Shown piece after piece: positions 17,760 to 34,160 of a DNA stretch of 64,000 nucleotides (position 1 is its first letter; each line of letters begins with the position of its first letter). A model generated the notes under the pieces. The model was not told where the DNA came from, did not search any database, and saw only the letters and a program-made list of their open reading frames with translations. The stretch lies in contig JAEUTH010000004.1 in the NCBI GenBank assembly GCA_016788165.1, positions 2,522-66,521 on the forward strand, given 5' to 3'. A program made the translations under genes and the position numbers. The stretch comes from Bacteroidia bacterium (GTDB taxonomy: Bacteria; Bacteroidota; Bacteroidia; AKYH767-A; OLB10).

Positions 17760-20700
17760 TTATTTTTCACTCATGTGTTCCACACCATCCCAATCGTTAC
17801 CAACACCTTCAACCATAAAACGCGCTGCATTTTGCAAGTACCTTTTTGCCGATTTATCGTCAGGATTTATATCTAACAACTGACGTAATGAAAGCGCTGC
17901 TTCGGCAAAACGTTTATTAAAGTAATCGGTAATGCCACGATTAAAAACATCTAATGTTTGCTGTTTAAGTTGTAACACCTGATCATCATCGGCACTAAAC
18001 ATTTCGAAAACCGACATTACCTCCTGCTTACCTTTTACTTTAATACGACCTAAATAACGGAACTGAAACAATTCTAAATTCCCCAAAGCCTGGTATAGGT
18101 TTTCGCTTAATACCACATTGGCTCCAAATATTTTTGTTAGCCCTTCTAACCTCGAAGCAATGTTTACAGCATCGCTTAATACATTGGCATCGTGCCTTTG
18201 ATTATCACCAATAATACCCATCATTATTGGGCCTTTGTGCAAACCAATGCCCACAGCAATAGGCTGTTGCTGGTTGCTAACACGCTCCTTATTGTACGAT
18301 TCAATTTCCTTTAAAATAGCAACTGCGGCTTGTAATGCGCTTTCGGGTTCGCCCTGAAAGAGTGCAATAAAACCATCTCCAAAATAATGATTTATAAAAC
18401 CGTTGTGGCTTTGTATTACCGGCCCAACACGTTGCAGGTAGGCATTGATAAATGCAAAATTTTCTTCAGTAGTCATGCCTTCGCTCATTGCCGAGTATGC
18501 ACGTATATCGCAAAACATCACAATCATATCGCGTTTAATATGATCGCCCAGTTTTACCTCTAAAATGCTTTGGCGGCCAATAGCATTTATAAAATCGTGG
18601 GGAACAAAACGTTGGTAAGCCTGATTTAATTCAAATTGCTTTTTATATAGTGTTGCATTTTCGATTGAGACGGACATTTGGCTGGTAAGCAATTCTAAAA
18701 TACCCAATCGCTCGCTTGAAAACGCATCGGCATTTGAACGATGTTCAACATAAATAATTCCGTTAGTGGCGCCTTTGTGCGATAAGGGCAGGCACATATA
18801 ACTTGCCGGATTATAAGATTTAAAATATTCGTCACGTTCGAATATTTTAATCGAACTGTTTACAAATGAAAGCACTTGCGTACGTGTTCGAATTACATAA
18901 TTTATTACCGATACGGGTATATTGGTAGCCATATCAATGTCAGCCGATTCCATGGTGTGTATGTCTGCATCTTCAACGTTAAAATCGGCTTCGATGCGCC
19001 ATTTATTATTGTAATTTAAAACCAATACAGCCCTTTGTCCACCGGCATTTTCAATTACGATACGCAAAATTTTTGAAAGCAGTTTCTCATACACAATTTC
19101 TTCGCTTAATGCATGCGAAGCTTTCATAACACTTTTCATATCAAAGCCTGCCAGGTCGGCTGTGTTGATACTGCTGTAAAGCGTACTGAATATATCGGTA
19201 CGTTTTGTTGATACCGTGTTTTTATTTACGAACGGATATTTATTATCAATAGCTTTCGCTAAACGCTGATAGCCTAATTTATCATAAATATATCGGGCAC
19301 GTTCTAAATGGGGTTGTGCATAAATTTTATTACTCATGCTAATCCAAAACGCTCCGGCCTTTTGATGCGCTAATGCTACCTCCCTGTCGAAATCATATAA
19401 CTCGGCCGATTCAATTGCCTTACCATAAAATTCAATTGCTTTTAAAATATCGCCTTTTACGCGCATGTATTCTGCTTCAACTAAAAAGTATTTGTGCTCA
19501 AAATTAGAAGCATTATGTGTACTCCAGTTTTGTAGCTGTTCTTTAAAAGTATTAATGTTGTTCCAGTAGGTTTCAGTTTCACTTTCGGCAGCGCTTTCAA
19601 TCATACCTAAAAGAGTAAGCGCGTAAAGCATATTAAATGTAGCATGCGAAGGTACATTGCCAGCTATTACACCGGGCAACCCTGCAACAACCTGCAAGCA
19701 GTATGAAGCTTCGGCTAAGTTGCCGTATAAATAATACGCTTGCGCTTTGTATAAATGAAATATGGTAGAGCCGTAAGCATCTTTGGCATCTTTGCAATAT
19801 TGCAACAAGGCAGCTCCTGATTTATTGGGTAAATCGAAACTGGTTTCGGCATTGGTTGCACCTGCTAGATTTGACATTACTAATTGCAATGCTTGCAACG
19901 AGTCGTGTGCTAAATCGTGCTTTATTTTTTTAGTAAACTCCAACGCATCGGGTATGCGCAAGAGCAACGTTTGCAGCGATTCGTTACCTTGAAAATAGGA
20001 GTTAAAAAATGGATGAAAACTGGTATAGCCTGCAAAAATAAGTTCGCCACAGTCAATACTAACCTGATAATACTCGGGGTTTAGTTTTGCAGTTTCTGAA
20101 ATGTGTTTAACCCAAGGCGTATTATAATTTGTAAATAAATGGCCTGAACGGCTGAGGTTACGTGGCGATTCCTTTTTAAATTTTTCGGCCAAACGTTTAC
20201 TAAGTGTGGCAGCCGGGTAAGCATATTTGTAATTGCCCATTATAAAAAACAACAGGCCCAATTCAGAAAATGCATAGCCACCTTGCGGTGATAACCCATG
20301 CGTAATGGTTAAGTTTATTTTTAATAACACTTGCAAAATCCACATATTGGTTTCGCCTGTTACATAGGTTGGTGGCGATAGATTATCCAAAATGTTTATG
20401 GTACTTAAAATACCTTGATCTTGTATGGTTTGCTTATCGAAAACCGACTCAACACCATGGGCTTCGAAATAGGAAATTATTTTGCCCATTTCGTCAGGTA
20501 TTAATGCAGGGCAATCGTCTTTTTGCGGAAATGTAAAGTTAAGCAACTGCAACCCTTGCCGTGCCGATTCGATAGCTTCATAGTATTGCGTGCTGTTGTT
20601 TTGATTTTGCATCAGCATAAAATATATGCTGCTTTTTTCGGCTGCTGTTTGTGCACGCTCTATGCAATTTAATAAACTGTTTTGCGATTGCTCTAAATTA

Positions 20701-23081
20701 CCATTCAGGTAATCAATTTCGGCATGGTTGGTAAACAGTTTTAATGCAAAGTCATAATCGCTTTGCCAAATAGCATCGCCTGCTAATTTTTGTGCTGCAT
20801 CAATATATACCGATGCTGATTTGTAGGCACTGCTGTTTTTTGCTTGTATGGCTGCTTGCAAATTAAGCTGCGCCAACTTGTCTTTTTCGGTTTGGATATT
20901 AATTAATGTTATGCCTTCGTTACAATGGTTTACGATATCGAATATAACATCGTCCGTATCGGGATGATTGCTTAAAAGCAACCGTCCTATTTGCAGATGT
21001 ACGGCCGCTTGCCTGGTAGCTGGCATTAATGTAAAACTTGCTTGTTGTATTCTGTCATGTGCAAATTCGAATTTGGCTTGTTGGCTTACCTCAATATGTT
21101 CAATCAGTTTATAATTTTCGTTTAACGGCAATACCAAACCCTCTAACACTGCCGGCCATAAGTCATTAAGTGTATCGGCAGCAGGCTTATCATATAATGT
21201 TGACAACAGATTTATATCAAACAACCCACCAATGCAGCTGGCTAATTGTAATACATGTTGGGTTGGCAAGGGTAGTTCGCTAATTTTTGCAATTAAAAAA
21301 TCAATTACGTTATCGGTAATTTTTCGCTTTTTAATTTCATCAATGTTTACATCCCATAAATTTTTTTCTTGGTTAAACACGATTAAATCGAAATGATAGA
21401 GCGATTTTAAAAACTCTATTGTAAAAAATGCATTACCCTGTGTTTTCGAAAATATTAATTCTGTTAAGCTTAATGTAATTTTATCTTCAGTGTGCAGTAC
21501 ATCTTTTACAAGTTGAAAAATGTGTTCGGCTAATAATGGTTTTAATTGAATTGACTTTACAATTGCTTTATCCTTAATAGCAGCATCAATTGTATGTAAC
21601 AACGGGTGGCCCGGTGTAACTTCGTTATCGCGGTATGCGCCAATTACCATCAGGTGCGGCAAACTTAAATCACATACCATGGTTTTAATAAGATTTAGCG
21701 AACCCACATCGGCCCATTGCAAATCATCAATAAAAAAAACAAATGGATGCTCGGGTTGCGCTATTGCGCGAATAAAATTTACAAATGTTATATTGAAACG
21801 ATTGAGTGCCTCCATAGCATCTAACTTGGGTGCTTCCTCTTGCTCGCCAATAATATCAGCCAAGGCAGGTGCTAATTCAATTAAAATGCTGCCGTTTTCG
21901 CCTACACCTTGTTGAATCAGGTTTTGCCAGTACTGTAGTTTAGCCTTGCTTTCTGTTAGCAACAATCTGCAAAATTCATTTATAGCAAGTGTAAATGCAT
22001 AGTATGGGATATTGCGTTGATACTGGTCAAATTTGCCTTCGGCAAAATGGCCCCTTCGCTCAGTTATGGGCTTATACAACTCGCCAATGAGAACTGATTT
22101 ACCTATGCCTGAGTAACCTGAAACTAAAAACCACTCTGTACTACCTTGACTAACTGCATCAAACGATTTTAGTAAGACATCTATTTCTTTATCGCGGCCA
22201 TAAAGTTTTTGTGGAATTTGAAATTTTCCGGAAACATCGTGCTGGCCAATTTTAAAATCTATATGCGTTTCACCGTTTTCTATTTGACGGATGCAATAGG
22301 CTAAATCGTGCTTCAGACCTACTGCACTTTGATAGCGGTCTTCGGCATTTTTTGCCATCAACTTGATAATAATATTTGAAACAGCAACGGGTATTTTTGC
22401 ATTGACCAGGTGTGCCTGCGGTATTGACTTGGCAAGTTGATAATGTACCAGTTCTAACGAGTCGCTGGCTATAAATGGCAATTGACCGGTTAGCGATTTG
22501 TACATGGTAACACCCAATGAATATAAATCGCTGCGGCTGTCTATTTTACGGTTTACCCTGCCTGTTTGTTCGGGCGACATGTGCGATAGTGTGCCCTTAA
22601 CCCTATCGGGATTTCCTAAATTTGTATTTATTAAATCAATATGTGTGCTAATACCAAAATCAATTAGTACGGGTTGTTGTGTTTGCGAATCCCATAATAT
22701 ATTTCGTCCATTAATATCTTTATGTATAATGCCCTGATTGTGAATTTGCGTTAATATATCGGCTATTGTTACATAAATTTTTAATTGCTCAAGCACTGAA
22801 ATTTGCTGACTTAAAATTTTATTTTCAAGTGTATCGCCTTCAATAAATTCGAACCCAATGGCCAGTTTGTTTTCAAACTTAGTTGTAAACAAGGCTTTTC
22901 GTACGCCTGATATTTTTAAGTCTTTAGTAAAATCGTATTCATTATTAAAACTTAAAATCTGATCGGGGTTTGGTGTAAGCGTACGTAAAACCTTTAATAC
23001 GTGACGGTTACCTTTGCTATCAGTAACATCATAAATGGATGATTCTTCGCTTTCGTATATTATCGTTTGTTTTTCGCTCAT
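17760..23081 (-). CDS. giant multidomain signalling protein: Ser/Thr protein kinase, STAND/AAA-type P-loop NTPase, TPR-like helical region, GAF, class III adenylate/guanylate cyclase
   Basis: 1773 aa. Kinase motifs HKDINGRNILWD, DFGIS and SPEQ. Walker A GYSGIGKS and Walker B FFIDDLQWAD. A long alpha-helical repeat region. A GAF-like segment at about aa 1180-1330. C-terminal cyclase homology domain (MIVMFCDIRAYSAM...GDGFIALF...GIGLHKGPIMMGIIG). Confidence 0.85.
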   Translation of the reverse strand: MSEKQTIIYESEESSIYDVTDSKGNRHVLKVLRTLTPNPDQILSFNNEYDFTKDLKISGVRKALFTTKFENKLAIGFEFIEGDTLENKILSQQISVLEQLKIYVTIADILTQIHNQGIIHKDINGRNILWDSQTQQPVLIDFGISTHIDLINTNLGNPDRVKGTLSHMSPEQTGRVNRKIDSRSDLYSLGVTMYKSLTGQLPFIASDSLELVHYQLAKSIPQAHLVNAKIPVAVSNIIIKLMAKNAEDRYQSAVGLKHDLAYCIRQIENGETHIDFKIGQHDVSGKFQIPQKLYGRDKEIDVLLKSFDAVSQGSTEWFLVSGYSGIGKSVLIGELYKPITERRGHFAEGKFDQYQRNIPYYAFTLAINEFCRLLLTESKAKLQYWQNLIQQGVGENGSILIELAPALADIIGEQEEAPKLDAMEALNRFNITFVNFIRAIAQPEHPFVFFIDDLQWADVGSLNLIKTMVCDLSLPHLMVIGAYRDNEVTPGHPLLHTIDAAIKDKAIVKSIQLKPLLAEHIFQLVKDVLHTEDKITLSLTELIFSKTQGNAFFTIEFLKSLYHFDLIVFNQEKNLWDVNIDEIKKRKITDNVIDFLIAKISELPLPTQHVLQLASCIGGLFDINLLSTLYDKPAADTLNDLWPAVLEGLVLPLNENYKLIEHIEVSQQAKFEFAHDRIQQASFTLMPATRQAAVHLQIGRLLLSNHPDTDDVIFDIVNHCNEGITLINIQTEKDKLAQLNLQAAIQAKNSSAYKSASVYIDAAQKLAGDAIWQSDYDFALKLFTNHAEIDYLNGNLEQSQNSLLNCIERAQTAAEKSSIYFMLMQNQNNSTQYYEAIESARQGLQLLNFTFPQKDDCPALIPDEMGKIISYFEAHGVESVFDKQTIQDQGILSTINILDNLSPPTYVTGETNMWILQVLLKINLTITHGLSPQGGYAFSELGLLFFIMGNYKYAYPAATLSKRLAEKFKKESPRNLSRSGHLFTNYNTPWVKHISETAKLNPEYYQVSIDCGELIFAGYTSFHPFFNSYFQGNESLQTLLLRIPDALEFTKKIKHDLAHDSLQALQLVMSNLAGATNAETSFDLPNKSGAALLQYCKDAKDAYGSTIFHLYKAQAYYLYGNLAEASYCLQVVAGLPGVIAGNVPSHATFNMLYALTLLGMIESAAESETETYWNNINTFKEQLQNWSTHNASNFEHKYFLVEAEYMRVKGDILKAIEFYGKAIESAELYDFDREVALAHQKAGAFWISMSNKIYAQPHLERARYIYDKLGYQRLAKAIDNKYPFVNKNTVSTKRTDIFSTLYSSINTADLAGFDMKSVMKASHALSEEIVYEKLLSKILRIVIENAGGQRAVLVLNYNNKWRIEADFNVEDADIHTMESADIDMATNIPVSVINYVIRTRTQVLSFVNSSIKIFERDEYFKSYNPASYMCLPLSHKGATNGIIYVEHRSNADAFSSERLGILELLTSQMSVSIENATLYKKQFELNQAYQRFVPHDFINAIGRQSILEVKLGDHIKRDMIVMFCDIRAYSAMSEGMTTEENFAFINAYLQRVGPVIQSHNGFINHYFGDGFIALFQGEPESALQAAVAILKEIESYNKERVSNQQQPIAVGIGLHKGPIMMGIIGDNQRHDANVLSDAVNIASRLEGLTKIFGANVVLSENLYQALGNLELFQFRYLGRIKVKGKQEVMSVFEMFSADDDQVLQLKQQTLDVFNRGITDYFNKRFAEAALSLRQLLDINPDDKSAKRYLQNAARFMVEGVGNDWDGVEHMSEK

Positions 23082-23088
23082 GGATTAA

Positions 23089-24498
23089 TTATTTACCACG
23101 TAAAAAAGTGTCGATTACAATTTTAAAAATAGAAGGCCGGCCTTTGGCGCGTAGCGCTTCTAAATCTTTTTTGGCTTCGGCATCACCAAAACCATCGGCA
23201 ATGGTAAAATGCTCAGTACCCCATGTTGCTTGCGAGCTTACTACCTTTACCATAAGCGCATGCATACGTGCAGCAAGTTCGGGGCAATTGGCACGTGATT
23301 TTTGATAACGTATATAGGACCAGGTTGCAAAAACAAAATCAATTAAATTATCAGCAATTACCATCAATATTAAAAAGAACTTGCTCTTTTCCTGCATGGG
23401 TACTTTGTGTACGTTTTCGAAAAAAGTTTCATCAATGTCGCTGTTATATCTGCGTATGATGGCATATACATAACTTATTTTGGGCAAGCCCGAAAACTCT
23501 TTTATAAAACTAACCAACGGTGCCGATAATGCCGGTGCAATTGGGTTTATAAATGGTGTACCATCGGCATTTTTTGGGTAAAACTGTACTTGATATATTT
23601 TTTCCTGCAAAGCTTTGCCTTCGGCATAAGTTGTTGGATTAATTTCATCATGCAAACCTAAGGCGCGTCCGTATAAATGCCAGGTATAATAATAATCGTT
23701 TAATACTTCATCATCCGGCTTTTCGCCCGAACTGATAATGCCGTCTATAACTTCCTGACTAAACGTATTTATGGCAAACAACATATCTTGTTGATTAATT
23801 GGTGCGCCCCATTTTTCCTTTTGCCAAACATTGCTGTTCCAAAAATCTGTGCTTATTTCTACGTCCTCTTTTATACTGATTTTTTTTTCTTCTACAGCCG
23901 ATTTTAAATTTATACGTGCTCTTATCATAGCATGCACCAATCGTAATTTCTGAATACTTTTTATGGCGCTGCCATTGGGCTCAAATGCATTTGGATCCAT
24001 TACATCTAAAACAAAATCCATAGTAGCTAATATGCGCCTGTGTGGGTATTGAGGCAACATACGTGTGCTACCTAAAACCTGTGTACTGTTGTATGCTGCA
24101 TATTGTTTTAGCAATGAGCGTACAGCCAAAATCATGGTACCCTCTATGGCATAATTATTAAAAAAAAAACATGCATTTTTTATCCGTTGTTTTTGCGCAT
24201 CCGTAAAATTAAAATGACTGGTATCGGCAAAATAATTATTCAAAATGGTTACAATGTTTGCATGCTCACCGCTATCCGTGCTTTTTTGCATTCTTTGTGT
24301 TAAATCTGCAAACTTTCTTTCATCAATTGTATCGCTGTTTTTGCTTATAGAAGCTAAAATTTGGTAGGCTTGATGTCCATAAGGAGATGCAACCAAAGCC
24401 AATGCTACTTTATCGGCCTCAGGGTCTTGCATTTGCCTGAATGTTGCAAACCATTTATCGAAATCAGGGTGTGATAATATGGGGGTTGGATTAGTCAT
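23089..24498 (-). CDS. hypothetical protein, possibly an MpaB/DUF2236-like all-helical oxygenase-family protein (tentative)
   Basis: 469 aa. Ends 8 nt upstream of the kinase-cyclase gene on the same strand, so likely co-transcribed. No confident motif beyond H/R-containing helices (KLRLVHAMIRARIN). Confidence 0.4.
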   Translation of the reverse strand: MTNPTPILSHPDFDKWFATFRQMQDPEADKVALALVASPYGHQAYQILASISKNSDTIDERKFADLTQRMQKSTDSGEHANIVTILNNYFADTSHFNFTDAQKQRIKNACFFFNNYAIEGTMILAVRSLLKQYAAYNSTQVLGSTRMLPQYPHRRILATMDFVLDVMDPNAFEPNGSAIKSIQKLRLVHAMIRARINLKSAVEEKKISIKEDVEISTDFWNSNVWQKEKWGAPINQQDMLFAINTFSQEVIDGIISSGEKPDDEVLNDYYYTWHLYGRALGLHDEINPTTYAEGKALQEKIYQVQFYPKNADGTPFINPIAPALSAPLVSFIKEFSGLPKISYVYAIIRRYNSDIDETFFENVHKVPMQEKSKFFLILMVIADNLIDFVFATWSYIRYQKSRANCPELAARMHALMVKVVSSQATWGTEHFTIADGFGDAEAKKDLEALRAKGRPSIFKIVIDTFLRGK

Positions 24499-24616
24499 AG
24501 ATGCTTACAATTATTGGTTTTTAAACAATAGGGGTATTATTGTAATGGTAGGCAGTACGTGTTTCAAAAAGCGTTGGTTTATTTTAACGGTTGTGTTAAT
24601 GCAGGCTAAAGATTAA

Positions 24617-25480
24617 TTAATTGTTTTTAGGTTTAGTGCCGGTATAAAACATATACCGCCATAAGTTTTGTTTATAGGCTTTATACTGATAATAGGTTGA
24701 CCAGGTGTTTGCTGTTTGGGTTCGGTTTCTAAATCCCAGCCATTGGCTTATATAGGTTATGGGTAAGCCCGGAAAAAATGAATAATACAGGCGTTTTATA
24801 CTTTTTATAACCTGTGCTGTTACATCTTTTTGTGTACAATTTACAAATCCACAATTGCTTAGTTTCTTATAAAACTCATCAACATCGGCATATTGTTTTA
24901 TAGCCCAGGTGCTTGTCCATTTTTGCATTAATAGATGTTGCCGGGTGTTGGGCTGTACCTTATAATTAAAAAAATCGGCTACCACCAACTTACCACCGGG
25001 TTTTAAAATACGATAGGCCTCTTTTATAAAATCGGCTTTGTCAAAAGCATAACAAACGCTTTCGATAGCCCACACTACATCAAAAGTATTATCGGCAAAA
25101 TGTGTGTTTAAATAGTTTTGTTTTTCGAAATGTGATAGGTGTGCTACACCGCATTTTATTGCATTACTAAAACAGGTTTGTACTTGCTTATCGCTAAGCG
25201 TAATGCCTGTAGTTTTGCAACCGAAATTTTTTGCTAAAAAAACAGAAGAGCCTCCCACACCGCAACCAGCATCCAACACATGCATATCGGGCATCGGGTT
25301 TACAAGTTTGGCTACTTGTACATTCATGTTATTTAATGCTGCCCTCAGATTTTTGGTGTTGCTATCCCAATAACCATAATGCATACACATGTGTGTATTT
25401 AGGTGCCATACTATTTCATAATCAATTTGACAGTTGTCGTAATAGTTTACAATTTCAACTTCGTTGATTTGTGGCTGCAT
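24617..25480 (-). CDS. class I SAM-dependent methyltransferase
   Basis: Motif I VLDAGCGVGGSSVFLA, motif II/III (ILKPGGKLVV) and a Rossmann fold. 287 aa. Confidence 0.8.
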   Translation of the reverse strand: MQPQINEVEIVNYYDNCQIDYEIVWHLNTHMCMHYGYWDSNTKNLRAALNNMNVQVAKLVNPMPDMHVLDAGCGVGGSSVFLAKNFGCKTTGITLSDKQVQTCFSNAIKCGVAHLSHFEKQNYLNTHFADNTFDVVWAIESVCYAFDKADFIKEAYRILKPGGKLVVADFFNYKVQPNTRQHLLMQKWTSTWAIKQYADVDEFYKKLSNCGFVNCTQKDVTAQVIKSIKRLYYSFFPGLPITYISQWLGFRNRTQTANTWSTYYQYKAYKQNLWRYMFYTGTKPKNN

Positions 25481-25674
25481 GCTGGTAGGTGGTGAAAAGG
25501 GTAGTGGTGCGTGGTGCTAAAGTAAATAATATAAATTGAGAATATGGTTGTTTATTTTAATACGATACAATATTTTTCGCATCGTTGTTAATTATAAGTT
25601 TTATTTATTTCATTTGTTAACCACCTAAAGCGATTATTTTACCCATCAAAAAAACAACCCCATAATGCAAACCA

Positions 25675-26307
25675 ATGTTTGTAATTCCCCAACATTGGTT
25701 CAGCGTATCAAAAAAGACTATGGCCCAATTCGCAGAAGCAGAATCGTTTATCAGTAACAAGTTAAAAAACGAACTCTCACCTAAACTTACCTACCACAGT
25801 TATTATCATTCAATTGATGTATTAGAAGCAGCCCTACGTATAGCCGAAAACGAAAATGTTACTGGTGAGCCACTGGCTCTGTTACGTGTAGCTATAATGT
25901 TTCACGACTCAGGCTTTTTACATACTTATAAAGACCATGAAGAATTAGGTTGTGCTTTAGTTCGCAAGCATTTGCCTGACTTTGAATTTACACCGGAGCA
26001 AATTGAGTTGATATGTGGTATGATTATGTCAACAAAAATACCACAACAAGCAAGCAATGTTTTACAGCAAATTATTTGTGATGCTGATTTAGATTATTTA
26101 GGGCGTAATGATTTTTACCCAATTGGTTTAACACTTTTTGAAGAGTGGAAACAGTTTTTAAACATTCAGTCGGAAGAGGAGTGGAATAATATTCAACTAA
26201 GTTTTTTAAGACAACATTTTTACCATACGAACTATTCGCGCGCAAAACGGCAACAATTAAAGCAAACACATTTGGAACAAATTGAAAAGATTGTTGCTGC
26301 TTATTAA
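25675..26307 (+). CDS. HD-domain metal-dependent phosphohydrolase
   Basis: H...HD...D pattern (YHSIDV...IMFHDSGFLH...CDADLDYLGRNDF). No GYP motif. An alternative start lies at 25720. Confidence 0.7.
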   Translation: MFVIPQHWFSVSKKTMAQFAEAESFISNKLKNELSPKLTYHSYYHSIDVLEAALRIAENENVTGEPLALLRVAIMFHDSGFLHTYKDHEELGCALVRKHLPDFEFTPEQIELICGMIMSTKIPQQASNVLQQIICDADLDYLGRNDFYPIGLTLFEEWKQFLNIQSEEEWNNIQLSFLRQHFYHTNYSRAKRQQLKQTHLEQIEKIVAAY

Positions 26308-26308
26308 G

Positions 26309-26752
26309 CTATTTGCTTAACATTTTCTCATTCAGGTTACGCAAGCGTTTACTCAAAATCCGTATAACGCCACGTGCAATTTCGGGTTGTGTATCTAATA
26401 GTTCAAAAAAAGGATCCTGGTCGATACGTAATAAAAAACAGGGTTTAGATGTAGTTGCAGAAGCTGAGCGTGTTTCGGTATCGAGCAGCGATAGCTCGCC
26501 AAAAAATTCTTTATCGTTAAGTACAGCCAGTGTTTGATTGCCTTTATTAATTTGAACTGTACCATGATAAATTATGTACATGCAATTACCGATATCACCT
26601 TCATTAAATATCAATACATTTTCATCCAATTCAATTTCGTGTAGTAAATGCGCAACCTGGGCCAGTATATTTTCAGGTGTATCTGAAAATATACTAATAG
26701 ATTTTAGTAGCAGTACTTTTTCAATCAATAATAAATTTCCGTTTTCCATCAT
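26309..26752 (-). CDS. stand-alone cyclic-nucleotide-binding (cNMP) domain protein
   Basis: 147 aa with a phosphate-binding cassette (FFGELSLLDTETRSASATT) and the beta-roll of CAP-family cNMP-binding domains. No HTH domain. Starts 6 nt after the stop of the upstream TLC-HEAT gene. Confidence 0.85.
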   Translation of the reverse strand: MMENGNLLLIEKVLLLKSISIFSDTPENILAQVAHLLHEIELDENVLIFNEGDIGNCMYIIYHGTVQINKGNQTLAVLNDKEFFGELSLLDTETRSASATTSKPCFLLRIDQDPFFELLDTQPEIARGVIRILSKRLRNLNEKMLSK

Positions 26753-26758
26753 ACGAAT

Positions 26759-29497
26759 TTAATGGGCTATAGCCTGCAACTTATGTACAATTGTTTGTTG
26801 CAGCAATCTATCGGCATGAGTCATTATTTGCTTCAAGCGTAAATTATAGTGTGTTGTTTGATCTTTACTAAGTGTATAAACTGCAACTGCTTTTGTCCAG
26901 CTATTGAATGTATCTTCCGGGGCGTTCAGTATTTGTTTGATTACCGTTTGTGGTTGTAATTGAACGTGAAAATATTTTTGCATTTCGTTAAGTTTAGTTT
27001 CTATGCTAACATTATCAAACAATGCAATAAACTTTTGTGCATGACTTTTATTTAATGTTACATCAATTACCTCCATTGCATTGGCTATTACGTTAGGCTT
27101 ATCAATTACATAAGCATGCTTTACTCGTAATATATTTTCAGTGTTGTAAAAAAATGTAAACATATAAAGCAACTGCGATCGTACATCGTTAAGCTCAATG
27201 GTTAGTGCATTATGTAATAGTTTGTTTTGCTGCATTGCTACCTGCTGTATCTGAGAAATCAACATTGATGCAAATAAAAATTTGTTATCAATTATTTGCA
27301 AAAACTGCTTATCGGTTTGGGCTGATTTGTAACCTAATACGTATAATGAAAAAACGATGTCGTGCAATAATGGTGTTCGTTCATTTGCCAATGTTGTAAG
27401 TACCGGTACACTATAAGTATGGTTAGCTTTTGCAATAACGGCAATTAATTTTTTTTGCGTTGGTAGCGATAGTGTTTTGCTTGAAATAGCCTCGGCAATA
27501 AGTTTTACGGCAGCACCACCTTGCATACTTAAGCTTTTCATAACGGAGGCCGTGTACTTAGTTTGTTCGGATAAGCTAATAAGTTTGTGTACAATTTCGG
27601 CCCGGTGACAAACTCCCGCTGCATTTATAGCTAAAGCTAAAATTTCTTCATCGGTGCTTTGCAAGGCTTCCATAACTTCATTACTAAAATGTGTGTTGCC
27701 CGATTGTTGTACAATAGTTAATGCAGCTATTAAAGATTGCTTACCTTGAGTAAATAAAACATGCAACTGTTTATGTGCCTCATGTTGTAAAAGTTCATTA
27801 CCAAGCATGCCTTTTAAACTTGCAATTTGCCACTGCTGTTCTTTATGCCAGCTGAGTTGGGTTATGTTGTTCCTCGACAAAGCATAAATGGCTGTTATAC
27901 ATCGTTGCTTAAGGGCAATACTTTGGGTTGTTGCTGCAACTTGGCTTATATCAGCCAACAATTCGTGGGCATGCAAACGCTGGCTTAATTTAACCGCTTC
28001 AAACTGAACAGGCATCGCAGTATGATTTAATGCCTGTTTTAAAATTTTATACGTTGATGGCTGTAACTCCTTAATTAAACTTAAAATAACCAATGCATCA
28101 TTTTCGCTGCTTTGCGGCATGCGCTGCGTTAAAAACGATAGGGTTGTTGCATCATTGATGTTGGCGTCCTTATTATTTAAATACCTGTTGTGTACAGCAA
28201 TAATTAAAGCCTTTATGTATGCCTTATCTATTATTAAAATCCAACAAATAGAAAGAAACAACAAAGCTGTTAACAGGTAACATAGCAATTGCAAGTCAAC
28301 AAAATGTTCCAAATCTATCATCAGATATAAAAACACTCCGCAGAAAAAAAATGCAAACGGATCCATAATGCCTTTCAGTATGTTATGCGCCCTAAGGCGT
28401 ACATTTGCTTGCAATGGTTGCATTATTGCTAAAAAAACGGGAGTTTGTATTGCCGACCTTAATACATCGTTTAATATTGACAGAAGCCCAAAAACCAATA
28501 GTACTTTTAAAGTACCTACACCTGACAATTGCATTAAAAATACGGGTATAAACAACAGCGACAATAAAACAGGAGTTATTAGTAATGCCTTTGTAATACC
28601 TAAGTAATTAATAATCCGATTTGTAAAAAACAATTTAACCACAATAGCAACACCCCGGCTAAATGCCAGAAACCAACCAATATATGTAGCCAACATTGCA
28701 TTATTGGTGAGCCTGTTTTTTACTTCGGCATAAAACGTAAAATTAATTACAGTAAAAGTGCTCATTATTAAAAACGATAAAATAGCCATGTGAAAAACAA
28801 GGTTATTTTGGAAAAAGTTTTTTACTATTTGTTTTAAGCTCTCGCCAGGTACCGCTTTGTTGTTCCGGTGTGCATGCGCTACCACTACATTCAGATGGCC
28901 GTACTTGTTAAGCCGGTACCAGTATCGTAGTGATATCAATACTAATATGGCGCCTACTACCAATAAGTTTTGTGCACCTAAAAAAGGAACAATTATAACT
29001 GCCGATGAATAGCCGATAAATTTTGCTGGTATATCGCCTGCACTTATTAAACCAAACAGGCGTTTGCTTTGCCTAACATCAAAAAGCAAGGATGCAAGGC
29101 CCCAAAAATCTAAACTGTTTAAAAGGTATAGTACATTATACCAAACCAACATGGCAAAGTAAAACCAAACACTTCCGGTAAAAGGCAACATGGCCCTGAA
29201 TGCTAAAATGCTTAATGCAATAAATAAATTGATGTAGAGTATTAAATATTTAATTCGAAAGGCATGCTCCAACTTGCTATAAATAAAGCCGGTAATCCAT
29301 AACACAAAAGCCGAAGCTATAAGCACCTTAGGTAATTCGACAATTGAAAACTTTTGCAAAAACCAGCTAAACGCTGCCGTAAAAAACAAAGCAATGCCTG
29401 CGCCCGAAAAAAATTGCTGAAAAAACAATTGTCTTACTAACCACCATTCTGTTTGGCGTACTTGTAAAAGGTTAAGCAGTTTGGTTTTCGAAATCAC
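26759..29497 (-). CDS. TLC-family (Npt1/Npt2 ATP:ADP-antiporter-like) 12-TM transporter domain fused to a C-terminal HEAT/ARM-repeat domain
   Basis: 912 aa. The N-terminal half of about 430 aa is polytopic, with TLC-like motifs (DFWGLASLLF; RQSKRLFGLISAGDIPAKFIGY). Compare Rickettsia Tlc1 ELWG..LLFWQF and [27 protein letters not shown]. The C-terminal half of about 480 aa is all-helical HEAT-like repeats. Confidence 0.7.
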   Translation of the reverse strand: MISKTKLLNLLQVRQTEWWLVRQLFFQQFFSGAGIALFFTAAFSWFLQKFSIVELPKVLIASAFVLWITGFIYSKLEHAFRIKYLILYINLFIALSILAFRAMLPFTGSVWFYFAMLVWYNVLYLLNSLDFWGLASLLFDVRQSKRLFGLISAGDIPAKFIGYSSAVIIVPFLGAQNLLVVGAILVLISLRYWYRLNKYGHLNVVVAHAHRNNKAVPGESLKQIVKNFFQNNLVFHMAILSFLIMSTFTVINFTFYAEVKNRLTNNAMLATYIGWFLAFSRGVAIVVKLFFTNRIINYLGITKALLITPVLLSLLFIPVFLMQLSGVGTLKVLLVFGLLSILNDVLRSAIQTPVFLAIMQPLQANVRLRAHNILKGIMDPFAFFFCGVFLYLMIDLEHFVDLQLLCYLLTALLFLSICWILIIDKAYIKALIIAVHNRYLNNKDANINDATTLSFLTQRMPQSSENDALVILSLIKELQPSTYKILKQALNHTAMPVQFEAVKLSQRLHAHELLADISQVAATTQSIALKQRCITAIYALSRNNITQLSWHKEQQWQIASLKGMLGNELLQHEAHKQLHVLFTQGKQSLIAALTIVQQSGNTHFSNEVMEALQSTDEEILALAINAAGVCHRAEIVHKLISLSEQTKYTASVMKSLSMQGGAAVKLIAEAISSKTLSLPTQKKLIAVIAKANHTYSVPVLTTLANERTPLLHDIVFSLYVLGYKSAQTDKQFLQIIDNKFLFASMLISQIQQVAMQQNKLLHNALTIELNDVRSQLLYMFTFFYNTENILRVKHAYVIDKPNVIANAMEVIDVTLNKSHAQKFIALFDNVSIETKLNEMQKYFHVQLQPQTVIKQILNAPEDTFNSWTKAVAVYTLSKDQTTHYNLRLKQIMTHADRLLQQTIVHKLQAIAH

Positions 29498-29586: not shown

Positions 29587-29623
29587 TAAAAAAAAATGCT
29601 GTTGCTTTTGGCAACAGCATTTT
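29587..29623 (-). terminator. intrinsic terminator downstream of the T9SS protease gene
   Basis: 10-bp stem ATGCTGTTGC / GCAACAGCAT. Preceded on the + strand by A9, which gives a U-tract on the - strand transcript. Confidence 0.7.
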
Positions 29624-29642: not shown

Positions 29643-31409
29643 TTAAATTTTGGTGATTTTTTTGGTGGCCAATTTTTCACCGGTTTTTATTTGCATATAA
29701 TAAACTCCGGTACGTAAATCGCTTAAATCAGCGTCAACACGTAACTTACCAGGTTGCATAAAATTATTACGCAACACCACTTTTTCTAATTGTCCAACAG
29801 CATTGTAAATGTATATTTCTACATCGCTTGCGGCTTCAATACTAAACTCAACTATACATGAGTTTAATACCGGATTAGGCGACACTTTAATATCATCTGT
29901 CATACTATTATGGTCAACTGTATTGCGAACAGCAAGTTCAGCTGTACTGCCACCATTTGCAACAGGAGGAGCCGATGGCCCGATAACAGCCATACCTGAT
30001 GTTGCACGTAGCGTTAATGCCTTGCTGGTGATAACAGTTTCAGTATAACTACCTTCGGCAATATCAACTACGTTACCGGCAGTAACGCCTGTAATACCTG
30101 CATTAACAGTTTTGTAAGGCCTGAAAACCGTGCCGGTTGCTGCAAAGCCGGATGGGTGGTTTTCATCAACAAAAGTTACACCGGTTGTTTTATTTACGAT
30201 ACCGGTTTCTGTATCATCGGCTTCGAAACTGCAACCCTGATTAGCTCCGGGCGATGCTGATGTATTACAACCTGCATTGGTATGTATGCCGCATGAATTG
30301 CGTGTGCCGTTTAATGCAACCGGACTGCCTGAGTTACCGCCTTCGGTATCAACCGTATATTGTAACGATACTCTTACTGCTGATGTATTTACTTCTGTAA
30401 CAAATGGGCCTGTATGTGTTTGTTCCGTTTGGTTTTGTGCATTACGGCCACCCGATGAACCCAGCGGAACCTGATCAACTCCATAACCTGTTATACGCGT
30501 AGTTGCAGGTAAATTATCGTGTGTAACCCTAAAAAACTTATTATCAGTAAAACTATTTTTAGTGTCATACGAATCGAATGCGGTTTTGCCGGTATTAGAA
30601 TTAACACCTACATTAAATACACACCAATCGTCACCAATAGTTACGTTTTGAAATACAATACTTGCATCGTTTACCGGATATTGATCAACAACTGCAGCAG
30701 CTACAGTAGTACCGTTTGATAATGATGCAGGTACATTAAATTCTAAAATATTTAAACTTGCTGGTGCATCACAACAGTGGCCGGCCGATACATAAGTTCC
30801 ATTTGTAATCAACCAACCTGTACAACCTAATGGCATCATACGTCCAATTGCCTGATCACTTAATGCGGTTCGATCATCATTGGGTCCGCATTGCGATTCG
30901 GGCACGGCTTGCACACCATTACTTAAATCATCGGCAACAATAAGTTTGTAAATATGAAAACCAATTTCTTTTTCATTAGGTGCAACGTGCAGTTGTATGG
31001 TTACCATGCCACCATTAAACATGGCGGAATGATTACCCCATTCGGCTAACGATTTTGCCGTAAACATTTGTACATCGCCATCGGCACCGGAAGTTATAGT
31101 GAAATAACTGTTAGTACCCATATTTACTTCATCAAAACGTAATTGAAACCAGGCAGCCGGAGCACCTGTATAAATTGCTTTTGATGTTACTACAAACTGG
31201 CTTTCATCAAATGTTTGAACAAAGCCCGGATCGGGATTAGCTATTTTTAAATCGGGCACATAGTTGCCACTTAGTGGTCCAAGTGTTTCATCAATCATTT
31301 CGATATGATGTGGCACAACATCTTGTGCTTTTACCTGGAGCGTAATTGCCAAACTAAATGCTAACAGCCATGACCCTAATTTTTTAGTGTTGTTCATGGT
31401 TGCTTTCAT
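29643..31409 (-). CDS. T9SS C-terminal-domain-containing trypsin-like (S1) serine peptidase
   Basis: Signal peptide. S1 His motif (TNGTYVSAGHCC) and Ser motif (GGNSGSPV). C-terminal type-A T9SS sorting domain of about 80 aa (KVSPNPVLNSCIVEF...GVYYMQIKT...KITKI). A nested ATG at 31397 is an alternative start. Confidence 0.75.
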   Translation of the reverse strand: MKATMNNTKKLGSWLLAFSLAITLQVKAQDVVPHHIEMIDETLGPLSGNYVPDLKIANPDPGFVQTFDESQFVVTSKAIYTGAPAAWFQLRFDEVNMGTNSYFTITSGADGDVQMFTAKSLAEWGNHSAMFNGGMVTIQLHVAPNEKEIGFHIYKLIVADDLSNGVQAVPESQCGPNDDRTALSDQAIGRMMPLGCTGWLITNGTYVSAGHCCDAPASLNILEFNVPASLSNGTTVAAAVVDQYPVNDASIVFQNVTIGDDWCVFNVGVNSNTGKTAFDSYDTKNSFTDNKFFRVTHDNLPATTRITGYGVDQVPLGSSGGRNAQNQTEQTHTGPFVTEVNTSAVRVSLQYTVDTEGGNSGSPVALNGTRNSCGIHTNAGCNTSASPGANQGCSFEADDTETGIVNKTTGVTFVDENHPSGFAATGTVFRPYKTVNAGITGVTAGNVVDIAEGSYTETVITSKALTLRATSGMAVIGPSAPPVANGGSTAELAVRNTVDHNSMTDDIKVSPNPVLNSCIVEFSIEAASDVEIYIYNAVGQLEKVVLRNNFMQPGKLRVDADLSDLRTGVYYMQIKTGEKLATKKITKI

Positions 31410-32857
31410 TATTTTTTAAGATTATTAATTTGTTGTTGCAATTTTTCGTTTGATGCTTTTAAAGCTTTCAATTCTTCGTTTTGTTTAATTGCATAAAGTG
31501 TTAGCTCTTCAATTTTTTCCATCATGGCTTTACTCATGGCAGCAACATGTAAACCCTCGTTTTCTACTACAGTGGCTTTTTCAATGCCGGGTAAATGTTT
31601 GTTAATCTTTATGAAATCAGATACTTCTTCTAATGATTTTAAACGATAATCATCAGCAAAAACATAATCGCACCAGCCTGTTTCTAAGCGCAACTCAGTG
31701 GCTCTAACGGTACCGCATACCGATAGCTTATAAGTGCCACTTGCGGCAACTCCCATACCTATGTTACCACTGCTTAAACTCATACTCATAAAAAGGTTAT
31801 TAACTGTGGCAAATTCATCGGTACTGCCCCTATACTCAAGTATGCCAAAATTATTTACCAGATTAAAGTCAAACGATCCGGTTCCTACTCGGTTTAACTT
31901 TAACCCAACACTGCCGCCACCAACACCAGATATAGTCATGTTATTACCGCTACCGCTATTTATAAACTGGGTTCCTCCTGCATTATCCAATGTAAAGTTA
32001 GATGCTGTAACTGCTAAATTGCTGGCTACGCCATTATTTAATGCACGTATCGAAACACTATCAGTTGCAATATTACGGCTGCTTGCAGTACCAATAGTAG
32101 CTTGGTCGCGCAACATTAAATTACGCCATCTTGCCCCACTATTTCCTAGATTATTTAATCCATCAGTTACCGACACAAAATCCGAATTACAACCCATAGT
32201 AAATCCACCTTCATCCGTTAAAGTTTCAATTGTGCCTATCCTTATTGCACCTGATACATTTAAATTACCATTTACATTTAACACAGTATCAACTGTGGTT
32301 ACACCACCACTTGCATTAACGTTGCCCAAAACATGTAAGCGCGCTGTGGGTGCATTGGTACCAATACCCACAAAGTTATCAGCAGCATTTATCGAAATAC
32401 TTGCAGCTCCTAATGCAATGTTTCTGATTGCAAAATTATTGGTACCTAAGGTACCCGTTTGCCATGTGGGGCTACCACCGGTACGGTAACTAACCGAAGA
32501 TGTAGCTGCTGCATTACCACGGTCAATGATTAAATTGGCCGTACCGCCTGTTGACTTAAATGAAGCCGAGGCATTGCCTGCCGATTGCACATCTAATAAA
32601 AAGGTGGGCGCTGTTGTTCCAATACCAAGTAAACCGCCATTTGTAAGTGTCATGCGGCTTAAGTTGTTTGTAATAAAGTTAACACCAACGTTGGTGGTAG
32701 TTCCAAAGTTACCGTTGGCTCCTAAGGCATTACCGCCTACCAACCATTGTGCTTGTGCTGTACCGGCAGTACAAAGCAATGCACCTACTGCTAAATGAGT
32801 GATTGTTTTTTTCATTGTTTTTTGGTTTTGTTGTTTATGATAAATTTCAATTTGCAC
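31409..32857 (-). CDS. secreted Gly/Asn/Thr-rich beta-helix-like protein with C-terminal tail-fiber (peptidase S74 intramolecular-chaperone-like) domain and coiled coil
   Basis: Signal peptide (AGTAQAQ). Repetitive G/N/T/S-rich body typical of beta-helical fibre proteins. C-terminal DDYRLKSLEEVSDFIKINKHLPGI... plus a heptad coiled coil. The antisense Pro-rich + ORFs are spurious. Confidence 0.6.
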   Translation of the reverse strand: MQIEIYHKQQNQKTMKKTITHLAVGALLCTAGTAQAQWLVGGNALGANGNFGTTTNVGVNFITNNLSRMTLTNGGLLGIGTTAPTFLLDVQSAGNASASFKSTGGTANLIIDRGNAAATSSVSYRTGGSPTWQTGTLGTNNFAIRNIALGAASISINAADNFVGIGTNAPTARLHVLGNVNASGGVTTVDTVLNVNGNLNVSGAIRIGTIETLTDEGGFTMGCNSDFVSVTDGLNNLGNSGARWRNLMLRDQATIGTASSRNIATDSVSIRALNNGVASNLAVTASNFTLDNAGGTQFINSGSGNNMTISGVGGGSVGLKLNRVGTGSFDFNLVNNFGILEYRGSTDEFATVNNLFMSMSLSSGNIGMGVAASGTYKLSVCGTVRATELRLETGWCDYVFADDYRLKSLEEVSDFIKINKHLPGIEKATVVENEGLHVAAMSKAMMEKIEELTLYAIKQNEELKALKASNEKLQQQINNLKK

Positions 32858-33130
32858 AAAACTAAAAGATGGATTTAAATTGTTCTTACTAAGCCGTTAT
32901 AACCTTTGTTACATTTAAACAAGTAACCATTGGGTTAATAAAATTACCTGACGTATATTAAAACATACTTTTACATTATGCTAAATCACTTAGTCAACTA
33001 CAATACTTTCAATATTAAGTATTGACCAGCTTATTGTAAAGATTACATTTGTTGCCACCGTAATAAGTGTACAAACTACACTTACACCATGCGCATTGAA
33101 TAACCCATTTTGATTGAACCTAATTCTTAT

Positions 33131-34126
33131 ATGTCGAAAACAAAATTTACAAAAGAAACCTACCTGATGTGGTATGAACAAATGCTGCTTATGCGCAGAT
33201 TTGAAGAGCGTGCCGGGCAACTTTATGGTATGCAAAAAATAAAAGGTTTTTGCCATTTGTATATCGGCCAGGAAGCATTAATGGCTGGCGCAATGAGCGT
33301 ATTAAGGCCCGAAGACCCAATGATTACTGCCTATCGCGATCATGCACATGCATTGGCAAAAGGTGTTAGCGCCCGTGCCGTTATGGCCGAACTTTTTGCT
33401 AAAGCAACCGGTTGCAGTAAAGGCAAAGGTGGTAGCATGCATTTATTTAGTAAGGAACATCATTTTTATGGTGGCCATGGTATAGTGGGCGGTCAAATAC
33501 CATTAGGTGCAGGTATTGCTTTTGCCGAAAAATATAAGGGTACTGATAATGTTTGTGTTTGTTATATGGGCGATGGTGCCACACGACAAGGCGCTTTACA
33601 CGAAGCATTTAATATGGCCATGACTTGGAAACTACCCGTTGTTTTTATAATTGAAAACAACAATTACGCAATGGGTACATCGGTTGAACGTACAAGTAAT
33701 GTTACAGAACTTTGGAAATTGGGTTTGGCTTACGATATGCCCAGCCAACCAGTTGATGGCATGACTTGCGAAGATGTACACGAAGCCATGGATAAAGCTG
33801 TAAAACATGCACGTGCAGGAAATGGCCCATCTTTGTTAGAAATAAATACCTATCGCTATAAAGGACATAGCATGAGCGACCCGGCAAAGTACCGCACCAA
33901 AGAAGAAGTTGAACGTTATAAAGCCGAAGACCCAATTGAAAAAGTTTTGAAAACACTATTGGATAAAAAATATGCTACCCAAGCCGACATTGATGTAATT
34001 ATTAAACGCGTAAACGATGTGGTTGAGGATAGTGTAACTTTTGCCGAAGAGTCGCCATACCCCGATCCTTCAGAACTTTACAAAGATGTTTATGTACAGG
34101 ATGACTATCCTTACATTATGGACTAA
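33131..34126 (+). CDS. pdhA: pyruvate dehydrogenase (acetyl-transferring) E1 component subunit alpha
   Basis: TPP-binding motif YMGDGATRQGALHEAFNMA and the phosphorylation-loop region YRYKGHSMSDP. The ORF is open from 33110. Confidence 0.85.
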   Translation: MSKTKFTKETYLMWYEQMLLMRRFEERAGQLYGMQKIKGFCHLYIGQEALMAGAMSVLRPEDPMITAYRDHAHALAKGVSARAVMAELFAKATGCSKGKGGSMHLFSKEHHFYGGHGIVGGQIPLGAGIAFAEKYKGTDNVCVCYMGDGATRQGALHEAFNMAMTWKLPVVFIIENNNYAMGTSVERTSNVTELWKLGLAYDMPSQPVDGMTCEDVHEAMDKAVKHARAGNGPSLLEINTYRYKGHSMSDPAKYRTKEEVERYKAEDPIEKVLKTLLDKKYATQADIDVIIKRVNDVVEDSVTFAEESPYPDPSELYKDVYVQDDYPYIMD

Positions 34127-34160
34127 TTATTAAATAAAAATTTTTATCAACTTTTAAAAT

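Follow-up and report, generated by a model that had tools for sequence, protein, structure and literature searches.

Carriers of the NTT family are textbook markers of energy parasitism. The locus described here raises the question of what a relative of such carriers, extended by a HEAT-repeat scaffold and encoded next to a cyclic nucleotide monophosphate (cNMP)-binding protein, may be doing in a free-living heterotroph, and whether a nucleotide cyclase encoded nearby belongs to the same system. The feature under study occupies positions 17760-29497 of a 64,000 nt stretch of DNA (referred to throughout as the window) from Bacteroidia bacterium GCA_016788165.1 (contig JAEUTH010000004.1, positions 2,522 to 66,521). 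An initial annotation of this DNA had proposed a cyclic-nucleotide signalling chain made up of a giant kinase-STAND-GAF-cyclase, a stand-alone cNMP receptor, an HD hydrolase and a TLC/Npt-type carrier fused to HEAT repeats, with an MpaB-like protein and an S-adenosylmethionine (SAM)-dependent methyltransferase in the same island. Upon listing the open reading frames (ORFs) of the window we found them at exactly the coordinates that had been drawn, and Pfam searches bore out the domains ascribed to the giant protein, MpaB, the methyltransferase, the HD protein and the cNMP protein. The chain itself survived in part: the cNMP receptor, the NTT-HEAT carrier and the HD enzyme form a conserved unit to which class III cyclases are repeatedly attached, whilst the giant cyclase of the window is confined to the closest clade.

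A conserved gene module with linked class III cyclases

We assembled a neighbourhood sample of 80 loci from different GTDB species, each of which was searched with every protein of the window. The cNMP gene was found by tblastn in 76 of the 80 loci, with two of the four misses (L054 and L080) located at a contig end. In 74 of the 77 loci with enough sequence it lay directly downstream of the NTT-HEAT gene on the same strand, at a median gap of ∼9 nt. An HD gene was adjacent in 54 of 69 loci. It lies either upstream in the same orientation or, in the layout of the window, behind the cNMP gene and convergent with it; seven loci show both layouts. Co-location of these three genes, which stay together in dozens of Bacteroidota from soil and freshwater, is far beyond chance, which is excluded for the trio, and the synteny that had first been noted in a single genome is not confined to it.

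Cyclases were initially counted by single-linkage clustering, which overcounted them via GAF and receiver proteins (a histidine kinase with eight GAF domains in L061 and hybrid regulators in L051 and L079). Replacing the clustering with a catalytic-domain hidden Markov model (HMM) reduced the number of positive loci from 39 to 34 of the 80, or 23 of the 42 with full 9-kb flanks, and these hold 40 true class III cyclase genes. All 40 are contiguous with the module, and the same HMM detected no cyclase among ∼750 other flank ORFs. Writing MH for the NTT-HEAT gene, cN for the cNMP gene, S8 for a subtilase gene of the type IX secretion system (T9SS) and CYC for a cyclase gene, the cyclases occupy at least five positions (S8>CYC>HD>MH>cN; HD>MH>cN>S8>CYC; MH>cN>HD<CYC<; HD>MH>cN>CYC<; CYC>HD>MH>cN); the linkage therefore survives rearrangement. 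The canonical adenylyl signature D-K-D-D-G-N-R is present in 33 of the 40, with two others reading D-K-D-T-G-N-R, three D-Q-D-A-S-N-R and two falling outside the alignment. Their input domains vary, comprising signal-anchor/TPR/transmembrane (TM), six-TM, receiver and GAF arrangements, and such variety of sensors around a constant trio is typical of signalling pathways whose output is fixed.

Composition of the surrounding genes differs between lineages. In one clade (L005-L025; e.g. L009:8284-9980) a thioesterase-like DUF4442 gene and a divergent M29 aminopeptidase gene take the place of HD upstream of the carrier; HD and one or two cyclases are convergent downstream in some species and missing in close relatives, so that HD and cyclase have evidently been gained and lost. 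In Chitinophagaceae, 31 loci (among L021-L079) carry an unrelated giant T9SS subtilase (S8, ∼1900 aa) and a TPR-TM adenylyl cyclase beside the module. Together with the protease of the window, described below, two different secreted protease classes adjoin the same module. These protease neighbours may reflect chance or shared ancestry, T9SS cargo genes being very common.

The pairing of carrier and receptor, as well as the idea that cyclic AMP (cAMP) tunes the carrier, was already published in 2017. Major, Embley & Williams (Genome Biol Evol 9:480; PMC5381601) described NTT-HEAT fusions with a gene for a domain that binds cyclic nucleotides (cNBD) several nucleotides downstream, in free-living bacteria including Bacteroidetes, as well as NTT-HEAT-cNBD fusions in cyanobacteria, deltaproteobacteria, Chlamydiae and oomycetes; they suggested that cAMP adjusts transport and left the function unreported. 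The locus studied here is of the same kind, with an NTT-like 12-TM domain, HEAT repeats and a cNBD gene that follows by 6 nt or, in relatives, is fused. It differs in how it is recognized, as their sequences were found via the Pfam NTT domain, whereas the Chitinophagales-type family is tied to TLC by profile, structure and certain two-cNBD relatives only. Their report names neither an HD hydrolase nor a cyclase in the neighbourhood; both are frequent beside the Chitinophagales-type module, and this linkage appears to be new information on a known kind of system.

The 912-aa protein as a distant NTT relative

A homolog search with the 912-aa protein returned 564 relatives of ∼915 aa, mostly from Chitinophagales. 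By itself the protein scores only E=0.66 with HEAT_2, whilst among sampled homologs Pfam detected HEAT_2 in 25 of 26 and MFS_1 in 10 of 26. When a full-length family profile was compared with the PDB, it matched designed alphaRep/HEAT proteins (E=1e-27), Chlamydia pneumoniae NTT1 (E=3.4e-7) and Arabidopsis NTT1 (0.004). Restricting the profile to the membrane domain left C. pneumoniae NTT1 as the sole match in the whole PDB (E=1.2e-8), covering profile positions 113-423, from TM3 to TM12. Within this region the invariant motif FWG..RQSKRLFG of the carrier aligns on FWGFANE..AKRFYALFG of NTTs.

The AlphaFold2 (AF2) model of the protein (mean pLDDT 88) comprises a membrane domain, a HEAT solenoid of paired helices and a further helical domain. 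Foldseek placed four NTT1 structures (9j3n, 9j3l, 9j3j and 9j3o) at ranks 1-4, with E=5e-6 to 4e-5 and TMt 0.58-0.66. As judged from profile and model, the 912-aa protein is a distant NTT relative and not a Pfam-level TLC member; the TLC/Npt-HEAT label, the least secure call of the initial annotation, thus held up by way of the family profile and the structure model (NTT1, alphaRep/HEAT), and not by a direct Pfam TLC or HEAT match. Compared with canonical members of the family (Npt1 of Chlamydia and Rickettsia, plastid NTT1; PF03219; 9j3n, 9j3j), it shares the MFS-type 12-TM fold and the FWG...(A/S)KR(F/L) region, and differs in being only ∼14 % identical, in carrying ∼470 extra cytoplasmic residues (HEAT plus helical domain), in having a separate cNBD partner and in its free-living heterotrophic hosts.

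Conservation is concentrated in the membrane domain, where 25 % of the alignment columns are ≥90 % conserved, compared with 3 % in the HEAT region and 9 % in the C-terminal domain, and invariant Lys, Arg and His residues lie within the TM helices. Since conservation peaks in the membrane domain and these basic residues are invariant, the carrier is likely to be functional, and its substrate is probably anionic. The C-terminal helical domain has no assigned family, contains the invariant residues E768, E809, F823 and W867, and directly precedes the cNBD in fused relatives.

The cNMP-binding protein and its natural fusions with the carrier

The 147-aa protein matches cNMP_binding (PF00027, E=1.6e-18) and no other Pfam family, with no helix-turn-helix (HTH) domain detected, in agreement with its initial description as a stand-alone receptor with an intact cassette and no DNA-binding domain. 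An NCBIfam CRP match (E=9e-11) covers the effector domain only, at 41.6 bits compared with a cutoff of 266. Its phosphate-binding cassette, FGELSLLDTETRSASA, is intact (G-E ... R-[ST]-A), and the form FGELSLLD.ETRSASA is >90 % conserved across 75 orthologs. The protein shares with CRP/FNR regulators the cNMP β-barrel and the Gly-Glu and Arg-Ser-Ala cassette of Escherichia coli CRP; it differs from them in lacking the HTH and in having as nearest relatives not transcription factors but the C-terminal domains of membrane carriers. An Arg-Ser-Ala cassette is closer to CRP/cAMP-type cassettes than to the Arg-Thr of cGMP-selective domains. Given this cassette and the adjacent Lys/Asp cyclases, the ligand is likely to be cAMP.

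Searching the 147-aa protein against 1.84 billion representative proteins, we found that many of its closest relatives (45-57 % identity) are the last ∼140 residues of NTT-HEAT-cNBD proteins of 1050-1115 aa, whilst a second class of 1190-1280 aa ends in two cNBDs. P0281, P0297 and P0306 are examples of such fusions. In P0281 the NTT-HEAT homology spans the full length (33 % identity, E=9e-151): the alignment reaches residue 902, after which the protein runs on into a cNBD that shares 57 % identity with the 147-aa protein. Two of the two-cNBD relatives, P0255 and P0261, pass the Pfam TLC cutoff of 21 bits (22.8 and 32.2 bits, respectively), and the NTT-HEAT-cNBD architecture is therefore tied to true NTTs. 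The HD enzyme, too, can be fused, to the N-terminus of the carrier (P0096), and fused carriers retain an HD neighbour in L085 (43 % identity, E=1e-50) and L088.

The HD enzyme

The HD protein matches Pfam HD (PF01966, E=7e-7). Since a 100 %-identical database protein is 195 aa long and starts at Met16 (25720), this is probably the true start, and the first 15 codons of the ORF (25675-25719) are probably untranslated. Numbered from Met16, the invariant residues are H26/H30, H62-D63 and D121/D123. The structure model is near-perfect (pLDDT 98); in a Foldseek search its top matches were YpgQ and small uncharacterised HD hydrolases, with many class I phosphodiesterases (PDEs) ranked behind them. 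We had considered the motif YH..H..DV as a marker of class I PDEs and dropped it, as the YpgQ-like protein BH2835 has the same H-x3-H.

Two comparisons frame the function of this enzyme. Class I PDEs (PDE1-11, LmjPDEB1) have cores of ∼320 aa, which is considerably larger than the HD protein. To this group, as to the small YpgQ-like hydrolases (Bacillus subtilis YpgQ, BH2835/3DTO and plant CN-PDE1/BdPDE1), sequence similarity is marginal. The best PDB sequence match of the HD family is 3DTO, the structure of BH2835, and this structure also serves as template family for enzymes of the YpgQ-like type in plants, which reportedly hydrolyse cAMP and cGMP (PMC8431786). The initial annotation had suggested a cNMP or nucleotide phosphodiesterase; a role as cAMP phosphodiesterase is plausible from the modelled fold and the genetic context.

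The giant kinase-STAND-GAF-cyclase

Pfam resolves the 1773-aa protein into Pkinase (residues 14-259), AAA_16 (292-480), TPR-like (1163-1280), GAF (1332-1473) and Guanylate_cyc (1519-1690) regions, and no TM segment was found, in line with the cytoplasmic protein ending in a class III cyclase that had been proposed. The kinase retains K30, a non-RD HKDINGRN, DFG and SPE, and both Walker A and Walker B motifs are present. The cyclase domain scores 57.2 bits with Guanylate_cyc (PF00211; gathering score 21.9) and matches the photoactivated adenylyl cyclase OaPAC at E=4e-21; its FCD, FGD and VNIASR segments align with D156, D200 and the transition-state Asn and Arg of OaPAC and are kept across the subfamily. 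Both metal-binding Asp and the transition-state Asn/Arg are therefore in place. The full signature, D-H-D-N-S-N-R, carries at the substrate-specifying positions a His/Asn pair instead of the canonical Lys plus Asp/Thr (ATP) or Glu plus Cys/Ser (GTP). As the 10 closest homologs share this pair, it is a conserved feature and not decay, with an uncertain product; other relatives in the subfamily read K/T, Q/T, N/T or K/D.

Multidomain cyclases of the Rv0386 and TIGR03903 sort offer the closest comparison, having likewise a class III core with the metal Asp and Asn/Arg residues and a replaced Lys/Asp pair, and likewise joining the cyclase to a STAND/AAA_16 NTPase and TPR. The match to TIGR03903, a family of kinase/AAA_16/cyclase fusions, is partial (E=2e-37) and far below the cutoff. 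Mycobacterium tuberculosis Rv0386 reportedly has a Gln/Asn pair and the order cyclase-ATPase-TPR-HTH, from which the order kinase-STAND-TPR-GAF-cyclase of the giant protein differs.

Whether this protein supplies the module with its ligand depends on its genetic linkage. The initial annotation had called it the only obvious cNMP source, which holds for the 64-kb window, where no second cyclase or cNMP domain was found, and not necessarily for the whole genome. In the three closest relatives (NTT-HEAT 69 %, 51 % and 49 % identical) the whole eight-gene order is retained, namely orf482, the T9SS protease, NTT-HEAT, cNBD, HD, methyltransferase, MpaB (one or two copies, being duplicated in two of the three) and the giant kinase-cyclase; a relative at 47 % NTT-HEAT identity retains the trio only. 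Furthermore, the C-terminal 334 aa of the giant protein are 37 % identical (E=1e-81) to a GAF-cyclase encoded directly upstream of HD>NTT-HEAT>cNBD in L061, and similar genes hold the same upstream position in L047 and L056. On the basis of this lineage-specific synteny, cNMP may be supplied locally by the giant protein.

The alternative, that the giant protein, MpaB and the methyltransferase are an independent signalling unit that neighbours the module in a single lineage without feeding into it, falls only slightly short of an even chance in our assessment. The MpaB gene lies 7 nt upstream of the giant gene, the two forming a unit of their own, and the kinase, STAND, GAF, MpaB and methyltransferase components occur in none of the 80 wider loci. 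The His/Asn pair also differs from the Lys/Asp of typical module-linked cyclases, and further members of the GAF-cyclase subfamily on long contigs lie away from NTT-HEAT, downstream of a multi-GAF histidine kinase and receiver, in 3/3 sampled cases. Against such independence stand the preservation of the eight-gene order down to 49 % NTT-HEAT identity, the related GAF-cyclases beside the module in L047, L056 and L061, and the status of the giant protein as the only cyclase of the window. For MpaB and the methyltransferase the outcome is clearer: they are lineage-specific neighbours outside the conserved module, and their inclusion in the island was not upheld beyond the three closest relatives.

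We also considered, and rejected on the three sampled contexts, the notion that the GAF-cyclase subfamily is generally linked to the module. A recurrent cassette was observed in L061 (851-9317), L090, L091 and L092, consisting of a giant multi-GAF hybrid histidine kinase with up to eight GAF domains, a single-domain receiver and a ∼559-aa GAF-cyclase; in L061 it abuts the HD/NTT-HEAT/cNBD module. The succession of methyltransferase, MpaB and kinase/cyclase genes likewise resembles a separate unit, with MpaB/Lcp-like proteins belonging to the heme oxygenase family.

Locus layout and flanking genes

The features of the locus are collected in Table 1. The carrier and cNBD genes are operonic, separated by 6 nt with zero overlap, and the translational coupling claimed for them initially was therefore overstated. 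The cNBD and HD genes are convergent, with stop codons 1 nt apart. A strong terminator-like hairpin separates the NTT-HEAT/cNBD transcription unit from the T9SS protease gene upstream. A sigma-70 promoter scan of the window was uninformative (54 sites compared with 62 expected), and Bacteroidota promoters differ.

Table 1. Annotated features of the NTT-HEAT/cNBD/HD locus and its neighbours (window coordinates)
Feature	Coordinates	Strand	Basis
NTT-like MFS membrane domain of the 912-aa protein (residues 1-440, 12-13 helices)	28178..29497	-	AF2 model, Foldseek, domain profile
HEAT-repeat α-solenoid of the 912-aa protein (residues ∼450-725)	27323..28150	-	Family profile, HEAT_2 in homologs, helix pairs in model
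C-terminal helical domain of the 912-aa protein (residues 726-912 plus stop codon)	26759..27322	-	AF2 model
Stand-alone cNMP-binding protein, 147 aa	26309..26752	-	PF00027
HD-superfamily hydrolase, 195 aa from probable start Met16 (ORF opens at 25675)	25720..26307	+	PF01966 HD
SAM-dependent methyltransferase	24617..25480	-	Methyltransf_11, E=5e-19
MpaB/Lcp-like (DUF2236) protein	23089..24498	-	PF09995, E=1e-12
Giant Ser/Thr kinase-STAND NTPase-TPR-GAF-class III cyclase, 1773 aa	17760..23081	-	Pfam
Giant protein, kinase domain (approximate)	22305-23042	-	
Giant protein, AAA_16 domain (approximate)	21642-22208	-	
Giant protein, GAF domain (approximate)	18663-19088	-	
Giant protein, cyclase domain (approximate)	18012-18527	-	
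Intrinsic-terminator-like hairpin, 13-bp stem and T-run	29593..29623	-	Terminator scan

Several further observations concern the surroundings of these genes. Inside the cNMP gene, near its 5′ end (26664-26695), lies an inverted repeat with a 14-bp stem containing one G-T pair, AGTATATTTTCAGG TGTA TCTGAAAATATACT, which the terminator scan flagged on the opposite strand. Directly upstream of the carrier gene are a T9SS-sorted trypsin-like protease and an unassigned 482-aa ORF (29643-31409 and 31409-32857, minus strand, overlapping by 1 nt), both retained in the three closest relatives. Beyond these, two ORFs of 338 and 428 aa (33110-35447, plus strand) flank the island on the strand opposite to the module genes, in a position that is held by 2-oxoacid dehydrogenase E1/E2 genes in relatives L081, L082 and L084. 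If the two ORFs are these E1/E2 genes, synteny extends beyond the island.

A proposed cAMP output module and its alternatives

Taking these results together, we propose that the NTT-like carrier, a dissociable cNBD subunit and the HD hydrolase form a cAMP output module, a reading to which we give an even chance. Sensor class III adenylyl cyclases, adjacent to the module in other species and possibly represented here by the neighbouring giant protein, would make cAMP. The cNBD subunit, once loaded with it, would alter carrier activity through the HEAT/C-terminal domain. The HEAT solenoid and helical domain are predicted to form a cytoplasmic extension of the 12-TM MFS-fold carrier. The carrier would move an anionic, probably nucleotide-type, substrate, and the HD enzyme, with its class I phosphodiesterase/YpgQ-like fold, would hydrolyse cAMP and reset the system. 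In its furthest-reaching form, which we advance tentatively and hold to be distinctly less probable than not, this would be the first MFS/NTT-type carrier under second-messenger gating: a cAMP-binding subunit able to detach would dock on the HEAT/C-terminal domain and switch nucleotide (or cAMP) transport, and a mini-PDE and interchangeable sensor adenylyl cyclases would complete a self-contained cAMP pathway with transport and not transcription as its output. Such a pathway would be the main route by which cAMP takes effect in Chitinophagales and, where the parts are fused, in cyanobacteria, Chlamydiae and oomycetes.

A number of observations weigh against the proposed cAMP output module. The 80 loci are mostly from Chitinophagales, and part of the synteny is therefore shared ancestry. 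Thirteen loci consist of NTT-HEAT>cNBD> only, and HD and cyclase are missing even among close relatives; being absent from some loci, both are accessory. A more distant two-cNBD form has no HD or cyclase neighbour on its short contigs. The carrier itself has zero significant Pfam or NCBIfam matches, neither TLC nor HEAT; the Pfam TLC model (PF03219) does not match it even at E≤10, nor any of 26 family members (0/26) at E≤0.1. Generic MFS transporters score almost as high as NTT in the structural comparison, so that the nucleotide-type substrate is a tentative assignment. For the HD protein, PDEs and the NTP pyrophosphohydrolase YpgQ are equally close: the Pfam PDEase_I model (PF00233) does not match it, and its family profile reaches only E∼0.2 with PDE5/PDEB1. 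The only cyclase in the window has the non-canonical specificity pair, its gene is three genes away from the module, and the sampled members of its subfamily on long contigs lie elsewhere. Finally, we found in the literature no experiment on any module member, nor any functional study after 2017.

The first of the remaining alternatives concerns the substrate. In a nucleotide-salvage module, the NTT-like carrier would import external nucleotides and the HD protein would act on them as a YpgQ-type pyrophosphohydrolase or nucleotidase, with cAMP only adjusting uptake through the cNBD. The YpgQ-like best sequence matches of the HD protein point this way, as do its frequent place as first gene of HD>NTT-HEAT>cNBD and its ability to fuse to the carrier N-terminus, which would suit an enzyme working on a transported substrate; secreted T9SS proteases as frequent neighbours are consistent with a scavenging lifestyle. 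Structural alignment, however, extends over more of the HD protein with class I PDE cores than with YpgQ-like proteins (176-184 compared with 157-165 residues, at similar Z), and the plant YpgQ-like enzymes introduced above are themselves reported to hydrolyse cNMPs (PMC8431786). In many loci, moreover, adenylyl cyclases lie directly beside HD, as expected of a synthesis/degradation pair. We consider salvage unlikely.

The substrates of characterised NTTs are ATP/ADP, other NTPs, NAD or SAM. Should the carrier instead move cAMP, the system would serve cAMP homeostasis, the cNBD sensing cytoplasmic cAMP in order to open a carrier that exports or imports it, and the HD enzyme degrading it in parallel. 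The clustering of cyclases, cNBD sensor, possible degrader and nucleotide-type carrier would be accounted for, and an anionic nucleotide would suit the basic residues conserved in the TM helices; no characterised NTT, however, is known to move cAMP, and we regard this version as improbable. Just as improbable is a transceptor or scaffold, in which the NTT-like domain would no longer transport and would anchor or sense, whilst HEAT recruits proteins in a cAMP-dependent manner. Such a role would accommodate the nature of HEAT repeats as protein-interaction modules, the lack of a Pfam TLC match in the family and the replacement of the conserved NTT motif PLDQEQKVKGK by MQPL..H.RLRAHTIVKG. No other part of the protein, however, approaches the membrane domain in conservation, and its TM helices contain numerous invariant charged residues, which would be unusual for a mere anchor.

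A Pycsar-like anti-phage system, in which the cyclase would make a cyclic nucleotide on infection and the cNMP effector with a membrane partner would kill or arrest the cell, is scarcely credible and we reject it. PADLOC matches stayed at the domain level (E=8e-15 between the cNMP protein and the cNMP domains of Pycsar effectors, E=1e-16 to 1e-17 between linked cyclases and PycC, and a match of the kinase domain to PD-T4-6), with none for NTT-HEAT or HD. The linked cyclases have the Lys/Asp pair that specifies adenine and score far better with the general cyclase model of Pfam (E=1e-53), and the module shows stable synteny across the whole order, occurs in many phyla and neighbours housekeeping genes and not defence islands.

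Significance

The role of HEAT-fused NTT relatives in free-living bacteria, Chlamydia trachomatis and oomycetes has been a question since 2017. What can be added is that the carrier/cNBD pair of Chitinophagales is accompanied by a PDE-like HD enzyme and by adenylyl cyclases with many different sensor domains. A cassette that could make, sense, act on and degrade cAMP turns what was a loose association into a hypothesis of cAMP-controlled transport that can be put to the test. Genetic work might be tried in the cultured strains that carry it, namely Flavihumibacter sp. ZG627, F. fluminis RY-1, F. cheonanensis WS16, Terrimonas pollutisoli H1YJ31, Terrimonas sp. R1 and Ferruginibacter paludis CECT 8366.

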